32,684 bases of DNA from Escherichia phage Wphi. Each line of letters begins with the position of its first letter. Position 1 is the first letter of the stretch. Position numbers and translations under genes: made by a program. Shown here one piece after another: positions 4,081-32,457 of the stretch. Below the pieces are notes generated by a model that was given only the letters and a program-made list of their open reading frames with translations, was not told the origin of the DNA and made no database searches. The stretch is from sequence record AY135739; one strand, 5' to 3'.

Positions 4081-5154
4081 ATGCGCCAGGAAACCCGCTT
4101 TAAATTTAATGCCTACCTGTCCCGTGTTGCCGAACTGAACGGCATCGACGCCGGTGATGTGTCGAAAAAATTCACCGTTGAACCGTCGGTCACCCAGACC
4201 CTGATGAACACCATGCAGGAGTCCTCTGACTTTCTGACCCGGATCAACATTGTGCCGGTCAGCGAAATGAAAGGGGAAAAAATTGGTATTGGTGTCACCG
4301 GCTCCATCGCCAGCACCACCGACACCGCCGGTGGCACCGAGCGTCAGCCGAAGGACTTCTCGAAGCTGGCGTCAAACAAGTACGAATGCGACCAGATTAA
4401 CTTCGATTTTTATATCCGCTACAAAACGCTGGACCTGTGGGCGCGTTATCAGGATTTCCAGCTCCGTGTCCGTAACGCCATTATCAAACGCCAGTCCCTT
4501 GATTTAATCATGGCCGGTTTTAACGGCGTGAGGCGTGCCGAAACCTCTGACCGCAGCAGTAACCAGATGCTGCAGGATGTGGCGGTCGGCTGGCTGCAGA
4601 AATACCGCAATGAAGCCCCGGCGCGCGTGATGAGCAAGGTCACTGACGAGGAAGGTCACACGACCTCTGAGGTCATCCGCGTGGGTAAGGGGGGTGATTA
4701 TGCCAGCCTCGATGCACTGGTGATGGATGCGACCAACAACCTGATTGAGCCGTGGTATCAGGAAGACCCTGACCTTGTGGTGATTGTGGGGCGTCAGCTG
4801 CTGGCGGACAAATATTTCCCCATCGTCAACAGGGAGCAGGACAACAGCGAAATGCTGGCCGCTGACGTCATCATCAGCCAGAAACGCATCGGTAACCTGC
4901 CGGCGGTACGCGTCCCGTACTTCCCGGCGGATGCGATGCTCATCACGAAGCTGGAAAACCTGTCCATCTACTACATGGATGACAGCCATCGCCGCGTGAT
5001 TGAGGAAAACCCGAAACTCGACCGCGTGGAGAACTACGAGTCAATGAACATTGATTACGTGGTGGAAGACTACGCCGCCGGTTGTCTGGTGGAAAAAATT
5101 AAGGTCGGTGATTTCTCCACACCGGCTAAAGCGACCGCAGAGCCGGGAGCGTAA
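4081..5154 (+). CDS. N: major capsid protein
   Basis: 357-aa ORF in P2 gpN position and size; follows scaffold gene. Confidence 0.9.
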   Translation: MRQETRFKFNAYLSRVAELNGIDAGDVSKKFTVEPSVTQTLMNTMQESSDFLTRINIVPVSEMKGEKIGIGVTGSIASTTDTAGGTERQPKDFSKLASNKYECDQINFDFYIRYKTLDLWARYQDFQLRVRNAIIKRQSLDLIMAGFNGVRRAETSDRSSNQMLQDVAVGWLQKYRNEAPARVMSKVTDEEGHTTSEVIRVGKGGDYASLDALVMDATNNLIEPWYQEDPDLVVIVGRQLLADKYFPIVNREQDNSEMLAADVIISQKRIGNLPAVRVPYFPADAMLITKLENLSIYYMDDSHRRVIEENPKLDRVENYESMNIDYVVEDYAAGCLVEKIKVGDFSTPAKATAEPGA

Positions 5155-5157
5155 CCG

Positions 5158-5901
5158 ATGACGAGTCCCGCACAGCGCCACATGATGCGGGTCTCGGCAG
5201 CGATGACCGCGCAGCGGGAAGCCGCCCCGCTGCGACATGCAACTGTCTATGAGCAGATGCTGGTTAAGCTCGCCGCAGACCAGCGCACACTGAAAGCGAT
5301 TTATTCAAAAGAGCTTAAGGCCGCGAAAAAACGCGAACTGCTGCCGTTCTGGTTGCCGTGGGTGAACGGCGTGCTGGAGCAGGGCAAAGGTGCACAGGAT
5401 GACATTCTGATGACGGTCATGCTGTGGCGTCTGGATACCGGCGATATTGCCGGTGCGCTGGAGATTGCCCGTTATGCCCTGAAGTACGGTCTGACCATGC
5501 CGGGTAAACACCGCCGCACCCCGCCGTACATGTTCACCGAGGAGGTGGCGCTTGCGGCCATGCGCGCCCACGCTGCCGGTGAGTCTGTGGATACCCGCCT
5601 GCTGACGGAGACCCTTGCACTGACCGCCACGGCAGACATGCCTGATGAAGTGCGCGCAAAGCTGCACAAAATCACCGGTCTGTTTCTGCGTGACGCTGGT
5701 GATGCCGCCGGTGCGCTGGCTCACCTGCAACGTGCGACACAGCTCGACTGTCAGGCAGGCGTCAAAAAAGAGATTGAACGACTGGAGCGGGAGCTGAAAC
5801 CGAAGCCGGAGCCGCAGCCCAAAGCGGCCACCCGCGCCCTGCGTAAGACCCGGAGCGTGACACCGGCAAAACGTGGACGCCCGAAAAAGAAAGCCAGTTA
5901 A
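5158..5901 (+). CDS. M: terminase small (endonuclease) subunit
   Basis: 247-aa ORF directly after N, matching P2 gpM position and size; basic K/R-rich C-terminus. Confidence 0.85.
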   Translation: MTSPAQRHMMRVSAAMTAQREAAPLRHATVYEQMLVKLAADQRTLKAIYSKELKAAKKRELLPFWLPWVNGVLEQGKGAQDDILMTVMLWRLDTGDIAGALEIARYALKYGLTMPGKHRRTPPYMFTEEVALAAMRAHAAGESVDTRLLTETLALTATADMPDEVRAKLHKITGLFLRDAGDAAGALAHLQRATQLDCQAGVKKEIERLERELKPKPEPQPKAATRALRKTRSVTPAKRGRPKKKAS

Positions 5902-11860: not shown

Positions 11861-13870
11861 ATGAGCACAAAATTCAAAACCGTTATCACCACTGCCGGTG
11901 CAGTAAAGCTGGCAGCGGCAACCGCGCCGGGAGGGCGGAAGGTCAACATTACCACGATGGCCGTCGGGGATGGCGGTGGTAAATTGCCTGTCCCGGATGC
12001 CGGACAGACCGGGCTTATCCACGAAGTCTGGCGACATGCGCTGAACAAAATCAGCCAGGACAAACGAAACAGTAATTATATTATCGCAGAGCTGGTTATT
12101 CCGCCGGAGGTGGGCGGTTTCTGGATGCGAGAGCTTGGCCTGTACGATGATGCGGGAACGTTAATTGCCGTGGCGAACATGGCCGAAAGTTATAAACCTA
12201 CCCTTGCCGAAGGCTCAGGGCGTTCGCAGACCTGCCGCATGGTCATCATCGTCAGCAGTGTGGCCTCAGTGGAGCTGACCATTGACACCACAACGGTGAT
12301 GGCGACGCAGGATTACGTTGATGACAAAATTGCAGAGCATGAACAGTCACGACGTCACCCGGATGCCTCGCTGACCGCAAAAGGTTTTACTCAGTTAAGC
12401 AATGCGACCAACAGCACGTCTGAAACACTGGCCGCAACGCCGAAAGCGGTTAAGGCCGCATATGACCTTGCTAACGGGAAATATACCGCACAGGACGCCA
12501 CCACCGCGCGAAAAGGCCTTGTCCAGCTCAGTAGCGCGACTAACAGCACGTCTGAAACGCTCGCCGCAACACCAAAAGCCGTTAAGACGGTAATGGATGA
12601 AACGAACAAGAAAGCGCCATTAAACAGCCCTGCACTGACCGGAACGCCAACGACGCCAACTGCGCGACAGGGAACGAATAATACTCAGATCGCAAACACG
12701 GCTTTCGTTATGGCCGCGATTGCCGCCCTTGTAGACTCGTCGCCTGACGCACTGAATACGCTGAACGAGCTGGCGGCGGCGCTGGGCAATGACCCGAATT
12801 TTGCTACCACCATGACTAATGCGCTTGCGAGTAAGCAACCGAAAGATGCCACTTTGACGGCGCTGGCGGGGCTTGCTACTGCGGCAGACAGGTTTCCGTA
12901 TTTTACGGGGAATGATGTTGCCAGCCTGGCGACCCTGACAAAAGTCGGGCGGGATATTCTGGCTAAATCGACCGTTGCCGCCGTTATCGAATATCTCGGT
13001 TTGCAGGAAACGGTAAACAGGGCCAGGAACGCGGTGCAAAAGAATGGCGATATCTTGTCCGGCGGAATTACTTTTGAAAACGACTCAATCCTTGCCTGGA
13101 TTCGAAATACTGACTGGGCGAAGATTGGATTTAAAAATGATGCCGATGGTGACGCTGATTCATACATGTGGTTTGAAACGGGGGATAACGGCAATGAATA
13201 TTTCAAATGGAGAAGCCGCCAGAGTACCACAACAAAAGACCTGATGACGCTGAAATGGGATGCACTAAATATTCTTGTTAATGCCGTCATTAATGGCTGT
13301 CTTGGAGTTGGTACGACGAATGCACTAGGTGGTAGCTCTATTGTCCTTGGTGATAATGATACCGGATTTAAACAGAATGGAGACGGTATTCTTGATGTTT
13401 ATGCTAACAGTCAGCGTGTATTCCGTTTTCAGAATGGAGTGGCTATTGCTTTTAAAAATATTCAGGTAGGGGATAGTAAAAAGTTCTCGCTATCCAGCTC
13501 TAACACATCCACGAAGAATATTACCTTTAATTTATGGGGTGCTTCCAACCGTCCAGTGGTTGCAGAGTTAGGCGATGAGTCCGGATGGCATTTCTATAGC
13601 CAGCGAAATACAGATAACTCGGTAATATTTGCTGTTAACGGTCAGATGCAACCCAGCAACTGGGGAAATTTTGATTCCCGCTATGTGAAAGATGTTCGCC
13701 TGGGTACGCGAGTTGATCAATTGATGGCGCGAGGTGGTCGTTATGAAAAAGCCGGACACACGATTACCGGATTAAGAATCATTGGTGAAGTTGATGGCGA
13801 TGATGAAGCCATCGTCAGGCCAATACAAAAATACATCAATGGCACATGGTATATCGTCGCACAGGTGTAA
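11861..13870 (+). CDS. H: tail fibre protein
   Basis: 669-aa ORF after the baseplate genes; internal repeated motif NSTSETLAATPKAVK; AT-rich C-terminal third (putative receptor-binding part). Confidence 0.85.
   Translation: MSTKFKTVITTAGAVKLAAATAPGGRKVNITTMAVGDGGGKLPVPDAGQTGLIHEVWRHALNKISQDKRNSNYIIAELVIPPEVGGFWMRELGLYDDAGTLIAVANMAESYKPTLAEGSGRSQTCRMVIIVSSVASVELTIDTTTVMATQDYVDDKIAEHEQSRRHPDASLTAKGFTQLSNATNSTSETLAATPKAVKAAYDLANGKYTAQDATTARKGLVQLSSATNSTSETLAATPKAVKTVMDETNKKAPLNSPALTGTPTTPTARQGTNNTQIANTAFVMAAIAALVDSSPDALNTLNELAAALGNDPNFATTMTNALASKQPKDATLTALAGLATAADRFPYFTGNDVASLATLTKVGRDILAKSTVAAVIEYLGLQETVNRARNAVQKNGDILSGGITFENDSILAWIRNTDWAKIGFKNDADGDADSYMWFETGDNGNEYFKWRSRQSTTTKDLMTLKWDALNILVNAVINGCLGVGTTNALGGSSIVLGDNDTGFKQNGDGILDVYANSQRVFRFQNGVAIAFKNIQVGDSKKFSLSSSNTSTKNITFNLWGASNRPVVAELGDESGWHFYSQRNTDNSVIFAVNGQMQPSNWGNFDSRYVKDVRLGTRVDQLMARGGRYEKAGHTITGLRIIGEVDGDDEAIVRPIQKYINGTWYIVAQV
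12404..12588 (+). repeat. intragenic direct repeat (two roughly 50-bp copies 132 bp apart) inside H
   Basis: Near-identical copies starting at 12404 and 12536, in frame, encoding ATNSTSETLAATPKAVK twice; also mirrored as a repeated peptide in the antisense ORF 12391..12609. Confidence 0.6.
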
Positions 13871-13873
13871 TTT

Positions 13874-14401
13874 ATGCAGCATTTAAAGAATATTACTGCG
13901 GGTAATCCAAAAACTGTTGCCCAATATCATCTGACAAAAAATTTTGATGTTATCTGGTTATGGTCCGAAGAGGGAAAAAACTGGTATGAGGAAGTAAGTA
14001 AGTTTCAGGAAGACACGATAAAGATTGTTTACGATGAAAATAATATTATTGTCGCCATCACCAGAGATGCTTCAACGCTTAATCCTGAAGGTTTTAGCGT
14101 CGTTGAGGTTCCTGATATTACTTCCAACCGGCGTGCTGATGACTCTGGTAAATGGATGTTTAAGGATGGTGCTGTGGTTAAACGGATTTATACGGCAGAT
14201 GAACAGCAACAACAGGCAGAATCACAAAAGGCCGCGTTACTTTCCGAAGCGGAAAGCGTTATTCAGCCACTGGAACGCGCTGTCAGGCTGAATATGGCGA
14301 CGGATGAGGAACGTGCACGACTGGAGTCATGGGAACGCTACAGCGTTCTGGTCAGCCGTGTGGATCCTGCAAATCCTGAATGGCCGGAAATGCCGCAATA
14401 A
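13874..14401 (+). CDS. G: tail fibre assembly (chaperone) protein
   Basis: 175-aa ORF immediately after H; P2 gpG position and size. Confidence 0.8.
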
Positions 14402-14439
14402 GTTGTATGAGCTCTAGTGTGGGCTTACATATCTATGGC

Positions 14440-14478
14440 ACAGAGTAAAGCCTAATCTGACAGTCCACTCTGTGCCAG
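14440..14478. repeat. perfect 10-bp inverted repeat (GGCACAGAGT ... ACTCTGTGCC) with 19-nt spacer
   Basis: Read directly from sequence; lies between G and the cargo gene; no flanking T-tract on either strand, so not a canonical intrinsic terminator. Confidence 0.55.
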
Positions 14479-14616
14479 AGGTGGGCATTGCTGATGTCAT
14501 AAAATATTATGCCAGCAGCCGTCTTAGGGGAGTGTTTACATTTCAATGATCGGGTATGATCTCGGCATGTTAATGGTTTATTACTAAATGCTTGCGCCTA
14601 TCTTTATGGAGGAGTA

Positions 14617-15516
14617 ATGAGTGGTATTCGTATAACTCAGGCTATTGATAACAATCAGATTTTAGTAAATGTAAATACTTTTAATTATAGTGTTAATCCC
14701 TATCCACTCAAATGTCCTGACCCAAATTGCTCTGCTCATTTGGTGTATGTCAAAAGCCATATTCGTCGGAGTTTTAATAAAACCTTGCATATCCCCGCCT
14801 TCTTTAGACTGGAAAAAAATTTCACGCATGACAAATTATGTCAGTATGGAACTTCAGGATTGAATACAATTTATGCAAGTGATTCCAGTCATGATATCAG
14901 CCGTGCGCTTGCCACAGGTAATAATATATTCCGTATACATATACTCGATGAAGATGATATCTCTAAATTAAGCAGAAAAGCTGCAGCTATGCAGGCAAAT
15001 CCACCTTCTGATACTACAGACCGCGTTTATGTCAAGAGAGGTCGGAAAGCCCCCTATGTGAAGAACATGGATAGCTTACGGGAGATCTATGAATATGGAA
15101 AAGCTCACCCCAACAAGAGAAACAGCATAAAAATTGTTACTGGAACAAGTACTGTAACGTGGTCTGATTTTTTCTATGAAACAACGCAGTTAGAACGATT
15201 GTCAACTTACCTCCAGAAAGTAAAAATAGCTCAGGTTGCTGTAATTATGAAAGTGCATGTGGCGAGAATCCCTATGGCGAAATTTAATTATCGACACTTC
15301 ATTGAAGGTTCGCCAATGAGGATAAAAGGGGGCTTTAATATATATCCTACGATTCAATTAGGAAATGTTACTCCAAAATTATTTCCGTTGAGTAGCATTG
15401 TCATGGTACTCGGTAAATTTACTATTCCAACAAATAGAAAAATGATAATGGATCCAACATTTGAGCGTGAAGTCAGAACCATAGTTTCTAGTGAAGAGCA
15501 AGTGCTAATTCTTTGA
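14617..15516 (+). CDS. hypothetical protein, accessory (moron) gene in the Z/fun slot between G and FI
   Basis: 299-aa ORF with strong RBS (GGAGGAGTA-ATG); markedly AT-rich versus flanking tail genes; flanked by 215-bp and 319-bp non-coding gaps; no family recognised. Confidence 0.7.
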   Translation: MSGIRITQAIDNNQILVNVNTFNYSVNPYPLKCPDPNCSAHLVYVKSHIRRSFNKTLHIPAFFRLEKNFTHDKLCQYGTSGLNTIYASDSSHDISRALATGNNIFRIHILDEDDISKLSRKAAAMQANPPSDTTDRVYVKRGRKAPYVKNMDSLREIYEYGKAHPNKRNSIKIVTGTSTVTWSDFFYETTQLERLSTYLQKVKIAQVAVIMKVHVARIPMAKFNYRHFIEGSPMRIKGGFNIYPTIQLGNVTPKLFPLSSIVMVLGKFTIPTNRKMIMDPTFEREVRTIVSSEEQVLIL

Positions 15517-15710
15517 AATCAAGAGGATTTGGCTCGGATGATTATGTGCGGCTTATAACCATAACGTAATGAGCGGATTTTTCTACTGCTTTTTATCATT
15601 TTGGTTAACTAAAACTAACCTCTGCTCCTCGCTCAAAGCAGACTGTCAGATTTGATAGCGTTTTGGCTATGTAAATTGTCAGTCGGAAAATGAGTGAGTA
15701 CAAATCAGGA

Positions 15711-15740
15711 CAGGCGGGCGAATTGCCTGCCTTTTCTTTA
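15711..15740 (+). terminator. weak putative terminator after the cargo gene
   Basis: Short stem CAGGC/GCCTG with 9-nt loop followed by CCTTTTCTTTAT; marginal. Confidence 0.3.
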
Positions 15741-15835
15741 TCTGTTGTTTCATCCACTGACCAGCCAGGTCAAATAGCGTCTCATGCACTGCCCAACAGA
15801 AAATAGTTGCACCCATTAACCACGGAGTTAAACGG
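15741..15835 (+). promoter_or_regulatory. putative late promoter P_F region upstream of FI
   Basis: By P2 synteny the fourth late promoter precedes FI; motif not confidently resolved by eye. Confidence 0.3.
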
Positions 15836-17026
15836 ATGAGTGACTATCATCACGGCGTGCAGGTGCTGGAGATTAACGAGGGCACCCGCGTCATTTCCAC
15901 CGTATCCACCGCCATTGTTGGCATGGTCTGCACGGCCAGCGATGCGGATGCGGAAATCTTCCCCCTCAATAAACCGGTACTGATTACCAATGTGCAGAGT
16001 GCAATTGCAAAGGCCGGTAAAAAAGGCACGCTGGCGGCGTCGTTGCAGGCTATCGCCGACCAGTCAAAACCGGTCACCGTTGTCGTACGTGTGGAAGACG
16101 GCACCGGCGAAGACGAAGAAACGAAACTCGCGCAGACCGTTTCCAATATCATCGGCACCACTGACGAAAACGGTCAGTACACCGGACTGAAGGCCCTGCT
16201 GGCGGCAGAGTCGGTAACCGGTGTTAAACCGCGTATTCTCGGCGTGCCGGGACTGGACACCAAAGAGGTGGCTGTTGCACTGGCATCAGTCTGTCAGAAG
16301 CTGCGCGCTTTCGGGTATATCAGCGCATGGGGCTGTAAAACCATTTCCGAGGTGAAAGCCTACCGCCAGAATTTCAGCCAGCGTGAGCTGATGGTCATCT
16401 GGCCGGATTTCCTCGCATGGGATACGGTCGCCAGTACCACCGCCACCGCGTATGCCACCGCCCGTGCGCTGGGTCTGCGCGCTAAAATCGACCAGGAGCA
16501 GGGCTGGCATAAAACGCTGTCCAACGTCGGGGTGAACGGTGTTACCGGCATCAGCGCGTCCGTATTCTGGGATTTGCAGGAGTCCGGCACCGATGCTGAC
16601 CTGCTTAACGAGTCAGGCGTCACAACGCTGATTCGCCGTGACGGTTTCCGCTTCTGGGGTAACCGTACCTGCTCTGATGATCCGCTGTTCCTCTTTGAAA
16701 ACTACACCCGCACCGCGCAGGTGCTGGCCGACACGATGGCTGAGGCGCACATGTGGGCGGTGGACAAGCCCATCACCGCAACGCTGATTCGCGACATCGT
16801 TGACGGCATCAATGCCAAATTCCGTGAGCTGAAAACAAACGGCTATATCGTGGATGCGACCTGCTGGTTCAGCGAAGAGTCCAACGATGCGGAAACCCTC
16901 AAGGCCGGAAAACTGTATATCGACTACGACTATACCCCGGTGCCTCCTCTTGAAAATCTGACCCTGCGCCAGCGCATTACCGATAAATACCTGGCAAATC
17001 TGGTCACTTCGGTTAACAGCAATTAA
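15836..17026 (+). CDS. FI: contractile tail sheath protein
   Basis: 396-aa ORF, GGAG RBS; P2 gpFI position and size. Confidence 0.9.
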   Translation: MSDYHHGVQVLEINEGTRVISTVSTAIVGMVCTASDADAEIFPLNKPVLITNVQSAIAKAGKKGTLAASLQAIADQSKPVTVVVRVEDGTGEDEETKLAQTVSNIIGTTDENGQYTGLKALLAAESVTGVKPRILGVPGLDTKEVAVALASVCQKLRAFGYISAWGCKTISEVKAYRQNFSQRELMVIWPDFLAWDTVASTTATAYATARALGLRAKIDQEQGWHKTLSNVGVNGVTGISASVFWDLQESGTDADLLNESGVTTLIRRDGFRFWGNRTCSDDPLFLFENYTRTAQVLADTMAEAHMWAVDKPITATLIRDIVDGINAKFRELKTNGYIVDATCWFSEESNDAETLKAGKLYIDYDYTPVPPLENLTLRQRITDKYLANLVTSVNSN

Positions 17027-28511: not shown

Positions 28512-28789
28512 TGGCAAAAATTCACGAGGTAAAGCTGCACGCAAAATATTTCGACCTTGTGCTGGAAGGAAAGAAACGCGCAGAGTTTCGGAAAAATGAC
28601 CGTAATTATGAGCGCGGGGACACGTTGATTTTGCATGAATGGGTACAGGGTGTGTTTACGGGGCGAAAGGTTGAAGCCCGGATAACAGATGTTACTGACC
28701 TGTCAGACTGGCTGGAAGATTATGTCTTGCTAAGTATTGAGCTGCTTAATACAGGCGTATATGAGATTGTGAACTGGAAAGAAACTTAG
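28508..28789 (+). CDS. hypothetical protein, ASCH/DUF3850-like (P2 orf91 position)
   Basis: ATG at 28508 overlaps the A stop (ATGA); about 93 aa MMAKIHEVKLHAKYFDLVLEGKKRAEFRKNDRNYERGD... Confidence 0.55.
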   Translation: MMAKIHEVKLHAKYFDLVLEGKKRAEFRKNDRNYERGDTLILHEWVQGVFTGRKVEARITDVTDLSDWLEDYVLLSIELLNTGVYEIVNWKET

Positions 28790-28828
28790 TGAGCCGTGGC
28801 TTGGTATTCAGAAATTAATCATGAAATT

Positions 28829-29023
28829 ATGCATCAGCTCGGCCTTGCTGTTATGTATGAACCAGAGACGGGGATGTCTGGCGGGGCAATGGTTGCCACG
28901 GATGGAGCATGGAACTATTCAGATGAACAGATGGAGCCGTGCACAGCAAAACGGGTGGCTTGGATAATGCACAGAATACCAGGCGAGATACCCGCACCCA
29001 TAAAACTAAAAATATCAAGCTGA
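28829..29023 (+). CDS. questionable small ORF at the accessory-island boundary
   Basis: ORF-track start 28796 is GTG; first ATG at 28829 has no convincing RBS; 64 aa, no recognisable features. Confidence 0.2.
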   Translation: MHQLGLAVMYEPETGMSGGAMVATDGAWNYSDEQMEPCTAKRVAWIMHRIPGEIPAPIKLKISS

Positions 29024-29380
29024 TGGCTATTGTTCAGCGTTTACCAGCGGATTATGGTCAACGAAAATCTGACGCCCGATGAGCTGGTCGGGTGTGCCGA
29101 AATAGTCCGGGATAATTACGGGCGGTTTAACCATATCGGTCAGTCCAGAGTTGCGCCACCACAACGCAGACGATAGAGAACGCCGCCAGTCGTGAAACTT
29201 GTTTTCAGGGCTGGCGGGGTTGAATAACGAGTGTCGCGAGGCGTTAGTTTGAGCTTACAATTAAACCTATTGAAAATTAATGAGAAGTCAATTTTATCTT
29301 TTTCTCGTTAAAGATGGCCACAACTACTAAAACGTGAGAATATCAAGACTTGGCAAAATCTAGCTTTTCCCAACGGGGTG

Positions 29381-29418
29381 TTTCGCTATAATACGCGGTC
29401 GGTTTTTAGGAGGGGTCA
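29381..29418 (+). promoter_or_regulatory. putative promoter -10 element and RBS for the methyltransferase gene
   Basis: Consensus TATAAT at 29387-29392; AGGAGG at 29407-29412, 6 nt before the ATG; no good -35 seen. Confidence 0.4.
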
Positions 29419-30357
29419 ATGCCAACTGTAGTTTCACTTTTTTCTGGATGTGGTGGTTCTGATGCGGGAGTTTTGAACGCAGGTTTCAATGTGCTTATGG
29501 CAAATGATATTTTGCCTTACGCAAGGGACGTTTACTTAGAAAACCATCCTGAAACTGACTACATTTTGGGCGATATCTCAGGGCTCCAGTCGTTCCCTTC
29601 TGCTGAGTTGCTCATCGGATGCTATCCTTGCCAAGGATTTAGTCAAGGTGGGGCAAGGAAGGCAGATAGAAAGATTAATACACTATATTTAGAGTTTGCC
29701 CGTGCTTTGAGTAAAATTAAGCCAAAAGCATTCATTGTAGAGAATGTCTCTGGTATGGTAAGGCGTAACTTTGAGCATTTATTAAAGGATCAATTCAAAG
29801 TTTTCGAAGAAGCAGGTTATACAGTAAGCTCGCAAATTCTGAATGCGTCCCATTATGGGGTATCCCAAGATAGGAAGCGAATCTTTATCGTAGGAATACG
29901 AAAGGACTACGGTATTACATACAAATTTCCAAAACCAACACATGGTGATGGTTTGACACCATATTCCACAATTCGTGATGCTATTGGGCATATGCCTGTT
30001 TGGCCTGTTGGCGAGTTTTATGACGCCGATTTTCATTGGTATTATCTATCGCGAAACCGTAGGCAAGATTGGGATCAGATATCTAAAACAATTGTTGCAA
30101 ATCCTAGACATATGCCTCTACATCCAATAAGTCCAACATTAGAAAAATTGGGACCTGATAAGTGGCAATTTACTTCGGATGCACCAGCTCGTAGGTTTAG
30201 CTATCGAGAGGCTGCTATTTTACAAGGTTTTGGAGATTTAATTTTCCCAGAAACTGAACGGGCTTCTATTAATATGAAATATACTGTGGTAGGTAATGCA
30301 GTACCGCCTCCATTGTTTGAGGCGGTTGCTAGAAACCTTCCAGATTTATGGGATTAA
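29419..30357 (+). CDS. DNA (cytosine-5)-methyltransferase
   Basis: 312 aa with C5-MTase motifs in canonical order: FSGCGG (motif I), PCQGFS (motif IV, catalytic Cys), ENV (motif VI), QDRKR (motif VIII), GNAVPPPL (motif X); AT-rich gene. Confidence 0.85.
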   Translation: MPTVVSLFSGCGGSDAGVLNAGFNVLMANDILPYARDVYLENHPETDYILGDISGLQSFPSAELLIGCYPCQGFSQGGARKADRKINTLYLEFARALSKIKPKAFIVENVSGMVRRNFEHLLKDQFKVFEEAGYTVSSQILNASHYGVSQDRKRIFIVGIRKDYGITYKFPKPTHGDGLTPYSTIRDAIGHMPVWPVGEFYDADFHWYYLSRNRRQDWDQISKTIVANPRHMPLHPISPTLEKLGPDKWQFTSDAPARRFSYREAAILQGFGDLIFPETERASINMKYTVVGNAVPPPLFEAVARNLPDLWD

Positions 30358-31391
30358 GCAGCGATCGCGCTGGAAGGATCAAGGATGATATCTAGATAGC
30401 TAATATTTTGACTGTGATCAATATTATCAGATGCTCTGGTTAAATTGATTAATCTTAGGCGATCAACAAAAATAGCATCGCCTAACTTATTTTTATGTGC
30501 CCACTCACCATCTATCCATCGTAGATCTTGAGGTAAGAAATAATAAGTTGCCCATCGGTGAGCTACGGGGAATTTACTGTAGAGCATCGCAGGTGAGGCC
30601 TCAAGCTGCTTCGCTTCCCACTCTTCTTGAGAACAGCCACACTGAACAAAAGAAATAGGGATGGCATCTCGTTGATCTCCCATTGGATGCCAGGCAATTA
30701 TGTCAAGGCCTCCGTCACCACTATTTCCTCGACTGAAATCTCGTTCTTTGAAGTTCGCTGTGCAACGGATATCGGAAGCAATACTCTTAAATTTATTATA
30801 TAGAGTTCCAGTGTAAGGGGCCGCTTGACCACCAGAAGCCCAGCATGCTTTTATTATGCTACCGCTAGGCATTAGGCTTTCAAAAATAGGTAAACTAATT
30901 AGTTCAAAACTGCGCGTTATCTCTCTTCTGCTCATTATGTTGACATATTTTATGTTAGCACAGATTAGTAAAGCTAAATATAGTCTTTCTAAATGTTCCA
31001 GTGGCTTTTCTGATATATCACGTAACTCTACAGTATCGTTGTCTTCTGATAAAGTAAAAGGGTAACTATCCCCAAATAAATCAATGCGTTGTCGTATGAA
31101 GCCTATCGCATAGCTCCACTTTCTGTCAGTATATGCTCGACTAACACTTCGTTTTGTTCTCTTGCGTACAGGCGTATCATTTTCATCATCAACATCATAA
31201 ACGCCCTCTTCTTCTGCTTCATCTGTTTCAGCTAGTACTGCTTCGGGTTGAGCTTGCAGTGTGCTATATAGGTCTCCTCGACTGAATGACCTGTCGATAT
31301 TAGTTAAGGCCAATATCTCAATATAATCAGCCCATAAATAAGGCTCATTAGAAGGCATTGAATCAAGATTTGTAATCATAATCTCAATCAT
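30354..31391 (-). CDS. hypothetical protein, second gene of leftward operon, convergent with the methyltransferase
   Basis: Start assigned to ATG 31389-31391 abutting GGGAGG (alternative ATG 31377-31379), about 345 aa; acidic tract ETDEAEEEGVYDVDDEND; stop codon overlaps the MTase stop (TTAA); AT-rich. Confidence 0.6.
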   Translation of the reverse strand: MIEIMITNLDSMPSNEPYLWADYIEILALTNIDRSFSRGDLYSTLQAQPEAVLAETDEAEEEGVYDVDDENDTPVRKRTKRSVSRAYTDRKWSYAIGFIRQRIDLFGDSYPFTLSEDNDTVELRDISEKPLEHLERLYLALLICANIKYVNIMSRREITRSFELISLPIFESLMPSGSIIKACWASGGQAAPYTGTLYNKFKSIASDIRCTANFKERDFSRGNSGDGGLDIIAWHPMGDQRDAIPISFVQCGCSQEEWEAKQLEASPAMLYSKFPVAHRWATYYFLPQDLRWIDGEWAHKNKLGDAIFVDRLRLINLTRASDNIDHSQNISYLDIILDPSSAIAA

Positions 31392-32457
31392 CCTCCCTTT
31401 TGCTTCTGATCTGATTTCTAATATTTTTTGACATCTCAAAAATTTCAGATGCAGCCTCTTCATGCTCTAATGTTAATTCTTTAGCTTTAAGTAGCATATC
31501 CCAAACTACTCTTAATTTAACACTAGCTGCGTTTAGTGCTTTATCTAATGCTTCTCTTTCTCCGCTGGTATATAGATATGCTTCATCCAAGTTTGAACTT
31601 TTCATGAGAATTTCAATTGCTTCGGGTTTCTCAACCACTGCTGCAATATCTTTTATTCTTCGAGACTCACCGATGATGGTTCTACCTTGTTGGTCAGGCA
31701 CAAAAAACCAAGAGAATAAACGCTTAAGGTTTTCTTCATTTAAATTTGGGTCTAAAAAATCCTTTTTATCCTGTAGACCTAACCAGTTTGTGATTTTTGA
31801 ATATCCCAAAGCTGTGGTTATATATGAAAATTCCACGTCAGAAGCCTTCATGGGTAAATTAAAAAACTCATGGTCATGCGCGACTTCATATAAGTTCAGT
31901 GCAGTGAGAAGTGTTGCAACATAATGTGGTTTACTCCCAATCTCACGAGCCAGATTTTTTAATACTATCTCTTTAGGTTCATGTGAATAAAAAGTATCAC
32001 ATAACTCTTTAAGGTATTTGGCTTTAGATAATGAGTCCCATTCTTTGACCCCAGTTATATGACGATAACCGATATATCTCAGTACATCCTCTCGGTTTTC
32101 ATAAATGATGCAGGGAAGCTTCTTAGGTTTATTGGTAGTATCATCAATGATTTCTTGCACACCTTTAAGTTTTCTTTTTGGAGGAAGCAGATCTCCATTG
32201 AGCAACTTTACAGCAGCTAAGCGTCTGTTTCCCTCAACCACGATGTAGTTTCCATTGCTTTTTACTGCCAATAAAGGTTCTCCAGGAAAGTAACCTTGCT
32301 GACCGATTGATAGCATTAGATCGTGGACACTTTCGTCATCTAACATTTCCTCAATGACTGTTGCAGCGTTACTGGCATCATTGAGACGAAAGAAACGTGG
32401 GTTTTTAGGGTCAAAATCAAGCTTATTTGTCTCAATTTCTACGATTTTGTTATCCAT
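31384..32457 (-). CDS. ParB/Srx-fold (ParB N-terminal domain-like) protein
   Basis: Start assigned to ATG 32455-32457 with GAGG RBS about 5 nt upstream (357 aa; ORF-track maximum 401 aa); ParB-box-like FDPKNPRF and VVEGNRRLAAVKLL; overlaps downstream gene by 8 nt. Confidence 0.65.
   Translation of the reverse strand: MDNKIVEIETNKLDFDPKNPRFFRLNDASNAATVIEEMLDDESVHDLMLSIGQQGYFPGEPLLAVKSNGNYIVVEGNRRLAAVKLLNGDLLPPKRKLKGVQEIIDDTTNKPKKLPCIIYENREDVLRYIGYRHITGVKEWDSLSKAKYLKELCDTFYSHEPKEIVLKNLAREIGSKPHYVATLLTALNLYEVAHDHEFFNLPMKASDVEFSYITTALGYSKITNWLGLQDKKDFLDPNLNEENLKRLFSWFFVPDQQGRTIIGESRRIKDIAAVVEKPEAIEILMKSSNLDEAYLYTSGEREALDKALNAASVKLRVVWDMLLKAKELTLEHEEAASEIFEMSKNIRNQIRSKREDD

Follow-up and report, generated by a model that had tools for sequence, protein, structure and literature searches.

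Background

The closest described counterparts of the gene treated here are the accessory genes that P2-like phages carry at their variable sites. One of them at this position is Fun(Z) of phage P2 (NP_046777), a non-essential lysogenic-conversion cargo located between the genes G and FI, which causes exclusion of phage T5 and sensitivity to fluorodeoxyuridine (FUdR). The DNA analyzed in this study was the whole of sequence record AY135739 from Escherichia phage Wphi (32,684 nucleotides, hereafter the window), which behaves as a complete P2-like phage genome. At the same G/FI junction, it carries a single gene for a protein of 299 amino acids (aa), referred to as the cargo gene, which is considered below as a candidate anti-phage gene.

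The initial annotation had named the G/FI junction as a known cargo hotspot, in agreement with the literature. Vassallo et al. (PMC9519451) described the fun locus as a second defence-enriched P2 hotspot, with three of their systems, and Egorov et al. (bioRxiv 10.1101/2024.10.15.618418) described it as a mixed-purpose hotspot. The old/tin hotspot was described by Rousset et al. (PMC9122126). In a 2026 preprint, known complete systems were found in 49% of P2-like elements, and many cargos are therefore unexplained.

The Wphi cargo gene shares with Fun(Z) the hotspot and the conserved flanks, and would likewise be a non-essential lysogenic-conversion cargo. The two differ in that Fun has 527 aa and is encoded on the minus strand of an insert of approximately 2.1 kb, whereas the cargo protein has 299 aa and is encoded on the plus strand of an insert of 1.13 kb. 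Whether it was an ortholog of Fun had been left open; alignment to P2 Fun(Z) gave a best BLASTP E value of 3.5 and alignments of at most 31 residues, and orthology was rejected in favour of a different cargo. Homology to ORF1 of P2-EC67 (303 aa), which occupies the same site, was rejected as well, the two proteins being unrelated. Other single-gene or small defence cargos of P2 hotspots (such as PD-T4-5, PD-T4-10, PD-lambda-5, CmdTAC/PD-T4-9, DUF4238, Tin, and Old) are similar in being AT-rich, swappable, and prophage-borne, and their relatives are likewise found in chromosomal defence islands. Unlike them, the present cargo has no match among the models of PADLOC 2.0.0, a collection of known and candidate defence systems which we take to cover those published ones, and no recognizable enzymatic or toxin domain; it is a candidate from sequence and context.

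The cargo gene is a credible new candidate and not a demonstrated system. We somewhat favour reading it as a prophage-borne anti-phage gene that works on its own and belongs to a new family so far without a name; its product would use a zinc module and an OB fold to bind single-stranded nucleic acid.

Cargo gene and protein family

The initial annotation had described a lone, well-formed, AT-rich gene with a strong ribosome-binding site between G and FI, and this description was confirmed (Table 1). The guanine-cytosine (GC) content is 0.371 in the open reading frame (ORF) and 0.372 in the insert, compared with 0.517 in the whole window, and just 2.3% of sliding windows of equal length reach this AT-richness. 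The ORF opens with ATG, and this start is supported by the shared beginning MSGI(R/K)ITQA in 12 of 12 close homologs. The encoded protein is cytoplasmic and basic, with a mass of 34 kDa and an isoelectric point (pI) of 9.76.

In PHROGs v4, the protein was matched over its full length (residues 1–299 of 299) by phrog_7195 with an E value of 5.8e-218. The same entry, which itself has no functional annotation, was matched by all 80 diverse relatives that were scanned. Pfam and NCBIfam scans of the 299-aa protein returned nothing. The sequence search against the PDB gave chance matches only with the single protein (a de novo TIM barrel, E values of 0.1 and 1.1) and was empty with the family profile. 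The family is so far unnamed: the gene was sequenced long ago, has been annotated only as a hypothetical protein, and is named by none of the libraries searched.

Homologs were collected by a word-indexed search, which found 12 clusters at ≥ 65% identity (all approximately 299 aa; Escherichia, Serratia, Morganella, Leclercia, and Proteus), and by an exhaustive profile search, which found 151 clusters (50% identity level, E ≤ 1e-3), mostly of 300–330 aa. Pseudomonas predominates among the family members with source names, and further members were found by tblastn on Vibrio, Pseudoalteromonas, Klebsiella, and Bacillus plasmids. The length is constant at 299 aa across genera among the close homologs. 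Pairwise ratios of nonsynonymous to synonymous substitution rates (dN/dS) among six enterobacterial homologs were 0.07–0.23, with saturated dS. The cargo gene is under purifying selection.

Genomic neighbourhoods of relatives

Outside phages, relatives of the cargo gene recur near known defence systems (within approximately 10 kb) in genomes unrelated to one another, as seen locus by locus. Overall, the defence neighbours comprise Juk with type I restriction-modification (R-M), retron I-B, AbiH, Tmn, AbiJ/Septu-like/Hachiman, Qat, HEPN, Gabija, and LmuB. In Serratia, JukA is located just upstream of the homolog, and hsdS/DUF4268/hsdR genes are also present in the integrase island. The Morganella homolog is accompanied by a retron I-B reverse transcriptase and an ATPase-Toprim gene, adjoining a prophage integrase. 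In P. putida, AbiJ_NTD3, AAA_15/21 with HNH, HamA with a helicase, and BrnTA are nearby, and other Pseudomonas loci have HEPN_LA2681 with a UvrD helicase, AbiH, QatB/QueC, and Tmn. At 13 further Pseudomonas loci, four neighbouring proteins are matched by GajA and four or five by GajB; there is also a strong LmuB match, ABC-3C MC3, and an OLD-like TOPRIM. On a Vibrio megaplasmid, AbiH, HEPN-associated, and GIY-YIG genes were found. The evidence for the anti-phage role proposed by the initial annotation consists of this guilt by association, which is strong; the PADLOC scan added nothing to it (see below).

The Serratia fonticola locus (L007, 5740–7663) is organized as a compact defence island beside an integrase: the homolog (73% identity) immediately follows JukA and a 370-aa gene without a PADLOC match, and this pair is preceded by a type I R-M operon interrupted by the DUF4268 gene.

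Predicted zinc site and fold

An alignment of 80 diverse family members, sharing 16–49% identity with the cargo protein, was used to identify conserved residues. Exactly four columns are invariant: C33, C38, H71, and C75. F63, Y147, W182, F185, and Q295 are near-invariant. Basic residues occupy many of the conserved positions, R64 and R106 being among the conserved residues; no acidic or catalytic constellation common to the family was seen in this alignment. The Cys/His cluster that had been noticed near the N-terminus is thus largely borne out, except that H41, listed there as part of it, is not conserved. The four invariant residues are predicted ligands arranged as two pairs (C33-x4-C38 and H71-x3-C75), with strands 41–45, 48–52, 55–59, and 62–65 of the AlphaFold2 model between them. 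A small zinc-binding element, also suggested earlier, is strongly supported as a prediction by these four ligands, in the form of a C2HC site in the beta-rich N-terminal module. The cargo protein itself matched no curated zinc-finger family, and two relatives gave sub-threshold matches to zf-C3HC (18.4 and 14.1 bits; cut-off 22.2 bits).

With the 80-sequence alignment as input, AlphaFold2 produced a model with a pLDDT of 91.9 and a pTM of 0.76; with 13 close homologs as input, the pLDDT was 45.9. The model contains a five-stranded beta-barrel superposable on OB folds. All top matches of the fold search were OB folds, with approximately 85–135 of the 299 residues aligned and TM values of approximately 0.2–0.25; they included MCM N-terminal domains, MCM10 with single-stranded DNA (ssDNA), RPA, CST/Ten1, POT1, and the AIM2 HIN domain. 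Foldseek was in agreement (best E value of 8e-4, AspRS), and the BFVD fold search gave weak OB and SSB-like matches only. Judging from the secondary structure of the model, the OB fold would correspond to the C-terminal barrel (residues ~204–299). The pI of the protein and its conserved basic and aromatic residues are indirect hints of nucleic-acid binding.

An OB fold and zinc are also combined in the ssDNA-binding MCM10 internal domain, RPA70 DBD-C, and the MCM N-terminal domain, to which the identity is only 6–16%. Unlike in these proteins, the predicted zinc ligands are approximately 130–170 residues ahead of the OB barrel, not after it or inserted in it, and there is an extra alpha/beta middle region; moreover, the cargo protein is bacterial, phage-borne, and outside the replisome. 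As judged from the model, the likeness is a fold-level analogy and not family membership. Class IIb aminoacyl-tRNA synthetases (AspRS, AsnRS, and LysRS) have an N-terminal anticodon-binding OB fold, whereas the cargo protein has neither a Pfam tRNA_anti match nor a synthetase catalytic domain. By this analogy, tRNA binding by the cargo protein is a possibility.

Fused effector domains were looked for in the longer family members, and none were found. A NeuB/SAF fusion (P0087) appears to be an unrelated chimera. Two members, P0079 (448 aa) and P0082 (467 aa), have a C-terminal extension of approximately 140 aa past the OB barrel; it has no Pfam match and may be an added module.

Distribution and mobility

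The flanks of the G/FI junction were found in 1033 of the 5426 complete E. coli genomes, and 115 of these 1033 carry the full cassette. Among phage records, it was present in 4 of 68. The cargo is dispensable for P2-like phages, since approximately 89% of the E. coli genomes with the junction do without it, and the possibility that the gene encodes a structural protein conserved in all P2-like phages was thereby rejected. The interval 14402–15835 is 100% identical to that in the prophage of E. coli W and its derivatives, and 99.8–99.9% identical to those in Yersinia phage HQ103 and one isolate named Peduovirus P2.

Seven P2-like contigs in IMG/VR (L017–L023) carry 99–100% identical cargo. In these contigs, J, I, FI, and FII are 97.7–100% identical, while the identity is only 85–99% for H and 87–95% for G. 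Near-identical cargo beside divergent H and G shows cassette exchange between backbones. The H and G genes of the window (11861–14401) have a GC content that drops to 0.42–0.48 in G and the 3′ part of H; together with their divergence, this indicates swapping of the tail-fibre module beside the hotspot.

A homolog with 88% identity was found in a lambdoid phage (IMGVR_UViG_3300007747_000136, L024) at positions 5001–5897, with genes for replication protein P, an MT-A70 methylase, DUF968, and GIY-YIG upstream and HNH_2 downstream. The same cassette thus fills accessory slots of unrelated temperate phages. In homologous cassettes, DNA similarity extends no more than approximately 70 nt ahead of the ORF and 120 nt past it, which indicates that the mobile unit is essentially the gene itself. 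The cargo is foreign and swappable, and moves as a lone cassette.

Insert boundaries and regulatory signals

The insert edges were determined by BLASTN against P2 (NC_001895) and the Z-region of P2-EC67 (AJ512685). Similarity to both is lost at 14477–14484 and regained at 15617–15618. The swapped insert is therefore approximately 1.13 kb long, not 1.43 kb: a foreign insert is present as initially described, and the remainder of the interval 14402–15835 assigned to it is P2 backbone. The flanks (14402–14484 and 15618–15835) are 85–96% identical to P2 and P2-EC67. The coordinates of all features are collected in Table 1.

Table 1. Features at and around the G/FI junction of AY135739, in window positions
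Feature	Position	Strand	Evidence and remarks
G	13874–14401		Pfam Caudo_TAP, 1.8e-36
Left P2 backbone with hairpin and left arm of imperfect inverted repeat (~14425–14482)	14402–14484	+	96% identity to P2 and 94% to P2-EC67 up to 14477/14484
Candidate sigma-70 promoter, TGGGCA-17-TATTAT	14482–14510	+	Consensus scan, 9/12 matches, weak
Variable cargo insert	~14485–15617	+	1.13 kb, 37% GC; flank similarity breaks off at both ends
Shine-Dalgarno sequence, GGAGGAG	14608–14614	+	2 nt ahead of ATG, read from sequence
Cargo gene	14617–15516	+	299 aa; WP_000014362.1, "hypothetical protein"; member of phrog_7195
Predicted C2HC zinc site (C33, C38, H71, C75), beta-rich N-terminal module	14713–14841	+	Ligands invariant in 80 members
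Approximate C-terminal beta-barrel, residues ~204–299	15226–15513	+	Predicted strands 205–217, 228–231, 241–248, 261–269, 283–290
Right arm of imperfect inverted repeat, backbone onset	15618–15674	+	"Right inverted repeat" in AJ512685; kept in P2 and P2-EC67
Intrinsic-terminator-like hairpin and T-run	15712–15742 (hairpin 15712–15732)	+	−17.9 kcal/mol, z −3.9
Late promoter pF region, backbone	15743–15835	+	Positions transferred by alignment to the P2 NC_001895 annotation
FI (tail sheath)	15836–17026		Pfam Phage_sheath_1, 1e-33

The left backbone piece coincides with the left inverted repeat annotated in AJ512685. Collinear inverted matches connect it with the right arm (14454–14465/15641–15652, 14476–14482/15618–15624, and 14425–14431/15668–15674). 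Directly after the G stop codon, the conserved left repeat contains a strong, interrupted 16-bp hairpin (14430–14483; −21.6 kcal/mol, z −2.5). As it has no T-run, it is no classical terminator, and it may be a recombination or RNA-processing element at the hotspot boundary.

The possible weak terminator of the initial annotation is indeed a hairpin followed by a T-run, and a good one, but it is located in the conserved backbone, outside the cargo. P2 and P2-EC67 share this hairpin, though its stem carries substitutions, and it probably ends the transcripts from G and the cargo gene. In the pF region that follows, homology to P2 suggests an activator-binding site (~15743–15768), a transcription start (~15810–15812), and the FI ribosome-binding site.

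The candidate promoter at 14482–14510 was the sole plus-strand match of the consensus scan upstream of the cargo ATG. In P2-EC67, −35/−10 signals are annotated at the equivalent spot, just within the left repeat (AJ512685). No convincing terminator was found between G and the cargo gene, and the sequence suggests that the gene may be transcribed in two ways, from this weak promoter-like site and by read-through of the late operon.

Two small minus-strand ORFs (15679–15816 and 15605–15757) lie mostly on backbone that is kept in P2 and P2-EC67 (right inverted repeat, terminator hairpin, and pF). One of them, of 45 aa, carries a hypothetical-protein annotation in Yersinia phage HQ103; probably neither ORF is a real gene.

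The second P2 hotspot is found in the window at approximately 28517–32457, between the replication gene A and the portal gene Q. It is also AT-rich, and the GC minimum of the window lies near 30871. According to the E. coli W annotation, its cargo comprises a DUF3850 gene, a DNA cytosine methyltransferase gene (29419–30357, plus strand), and a convergent pair on the minus strand (30354–32457) encoding a 345-aa hypothetical protein and a protein with a ParB N-terminal domain. This cargo resembles the "putative partition system" cargo of Rousset et al. (PMC9122126).

Proposed function and alternative explanations

We infer lysogen expression, an anti-phage function, nucleic-acid binding, and a mode of action as follows. 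The lysogen would express the cargo gene from the promoter just within the left repeat, possibly supplemented by read-through from the late G operon, and the protein would protect its host cell from infection by other phages, as a case of lysogenic conversion or of defence against superinfection. The zinc module and the OB fold would bind single-stranded nucleic acid arising in infection, with ssDNA intermediates of phage replication or recombination, or RNA or tRNA, as candidate targets. Because no enzymatic effector domain is recognizable, binding is proposed to block phage replication directly, by sequestration or occlusion. A defence role, for which the evidence is genomic context, appears more likely than this specific sequestration mechanism. 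In its strictest form, as an enzyme-free anti-phage system in which a zinc/OB-fold protein would halt infection purely by sequestering single-stranded nucleic acid (phage ssDNA intermediates, or phage or host tRNA), the proposal is tentative and, in our judgement, rather unlikely.

Several observations weigh against the anti-phage reading. None of the 5027 PADLOC 2.0.0 models matched the 299-aa protein at E ≤ 10, and Pfam and PADLOC scans of the 80 relatives gave no common family and no PADLOC model in more than one of the 80. The accession WP_000014362 appeared neither in the literature searched nor in the supplements of DefensePredictor and Vassallo. The protein shows no recognizable effector or catalytic domain, which sets it apart from most single-gene defences; the OB match spans only about a third of its length, and no fold could be assigned to the N-terminal and alpha/beta middle parts. 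The promoter call is weak. No recognized defence gene was seen near the Proteus (where colicin/pyocin genes are present), Leclercia, and Bacillus plasmid members. Finally, the lambdoid homolog adjoins replication genes, where DNA-metabolism accessory genes also occur.

The alternative that survives best, unlikely as we hold it to be, is that the protein is a defence enzyme, with a cryptic nuclease or toxic activity in residues ~1–200 that the OB fold would target or activate, leading to abortive infection instead of sequestration. Most single-gene defences carry an effector, and the two thirds of the protein for which no fold match was shown could accommodate one. The enterobacterial clade has invariant D89, S90, S91, H92, D111, D113, D114, and E188, and at alignment positions 91 and 188 an acidic residue is present in 54 and 56 of the 80 members, respectively; across the whole family, as described above, only the predicted zinc ligands are invariant.

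Doubtful, and placed second among the alternatives, is a non-defence role as an accessory nucleic-acid binder serving the mobile element, either as an SSB-like recombination or replication helper or as a counter-defence factor, which would protect the DNA of the element against host nucleases or hide a signal that sets off host immunity. The OB and zinc architecture is typical of replication and recombination proteins such as those with the MCM10, RPA70, and MCM domains compared above, the lambdoid homolog adjoins replication protein P, the MT-A70 methylase, and DUF968, and the cargo gene is co-oriented with the late operon, with no clear terminator ahead of it. Against this stand the many relatives in chromosomal and plasmid defence islands (Gabija, Hachiman, Juk, R-M, Tmn, and AbiH) without phage structural genes nearby, the large majority of junction-bearing E. 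coli genomes that do without the cargo, and the publication of the locus as a defence cargo site.

It is improbable that the protein is half of a two-component system, that is, a sensor or adaptor inert without a partner such as an AbiH-like protein or a host factor. The absence of a recognizable effector domain would fit a partner, and one Pseudomonas sub-clade does have AbiH beside its family members: two loci hold an intact, co-oriented AbiH gene 60–135 bp downstream, and a third holds a truncated copy. On the Vibrio tubiashii plasmid pFP31, AbiH is approximately 600 bp upstream of a fragmented family member. The AbiH positions are 10993–11889 in L013, 11069–11965 in L015, 10991–11611 in L006, and 6551–7414 in L040. 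None of the 15 other Pseudomonas loci that were checked (the 13 additional ones and two more) has AbiH beside the family member. Being restricted to one sub-clade and a Vibrio plasmid, AbiH is not an obligate partner, and its adjacency could reflect co-mobilized single-gene cassettes or a functional link. A 285-aa gene without a Pfam or PADLOC match follows the P. putida homolog by 48 bp in the same orientation (L004, 10984–11841). It was rejected as an obligate partner, as it is unrelated to AbiH and is not recurrent at other loci, including those 15. In the window, the cargo gene stands alone, with G and FI as its neighbours, so that no AbiH-linked two-gene module is present; the enterobacterial loci have no common neighbour, and the DNA flanks diverge directly outside the ORF.

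That the ORF is a mere passenger of a recombination hotspot, in decay or without function, as the hypothetical-protein annotation and the lack of a known domain might suggest, is scarcely credible given the low dN/dS (with saturated dS), the constant length across genera, the invariant zinc ligands, the confident AlphaFold model, and the widespread family.

Significance

About one in five complete E. coli genomes has a P2-like prophage, as counted by the G/FI junction, and the hotspots of these prophages are a proven source of new immune systems, with many comparable candidates. The candidate anti-phage gene of Wphi is well defined by its family of 151 clusters, a confident structural model, and a consistent defence-island context across genera. 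If the gene protects its host, it would add a defence family without an obvious effector domain and would bear on immunity by non-enzymatic nucleic-acid binders. If it gives no protection, this would caution against equating hotspot cargo with defence. Were the enzyme-free form of the proposal true, the cargo would be a bacterial immune protein with a logic like that of the eukaryotic OB-fold (HIN-type) nucleic-acid sensors, and a plug-in cassette of P2-like and lambdoid phages and of defence islands from Enterobacterales to Pseudomonas, Vibrio, and Bacillus.

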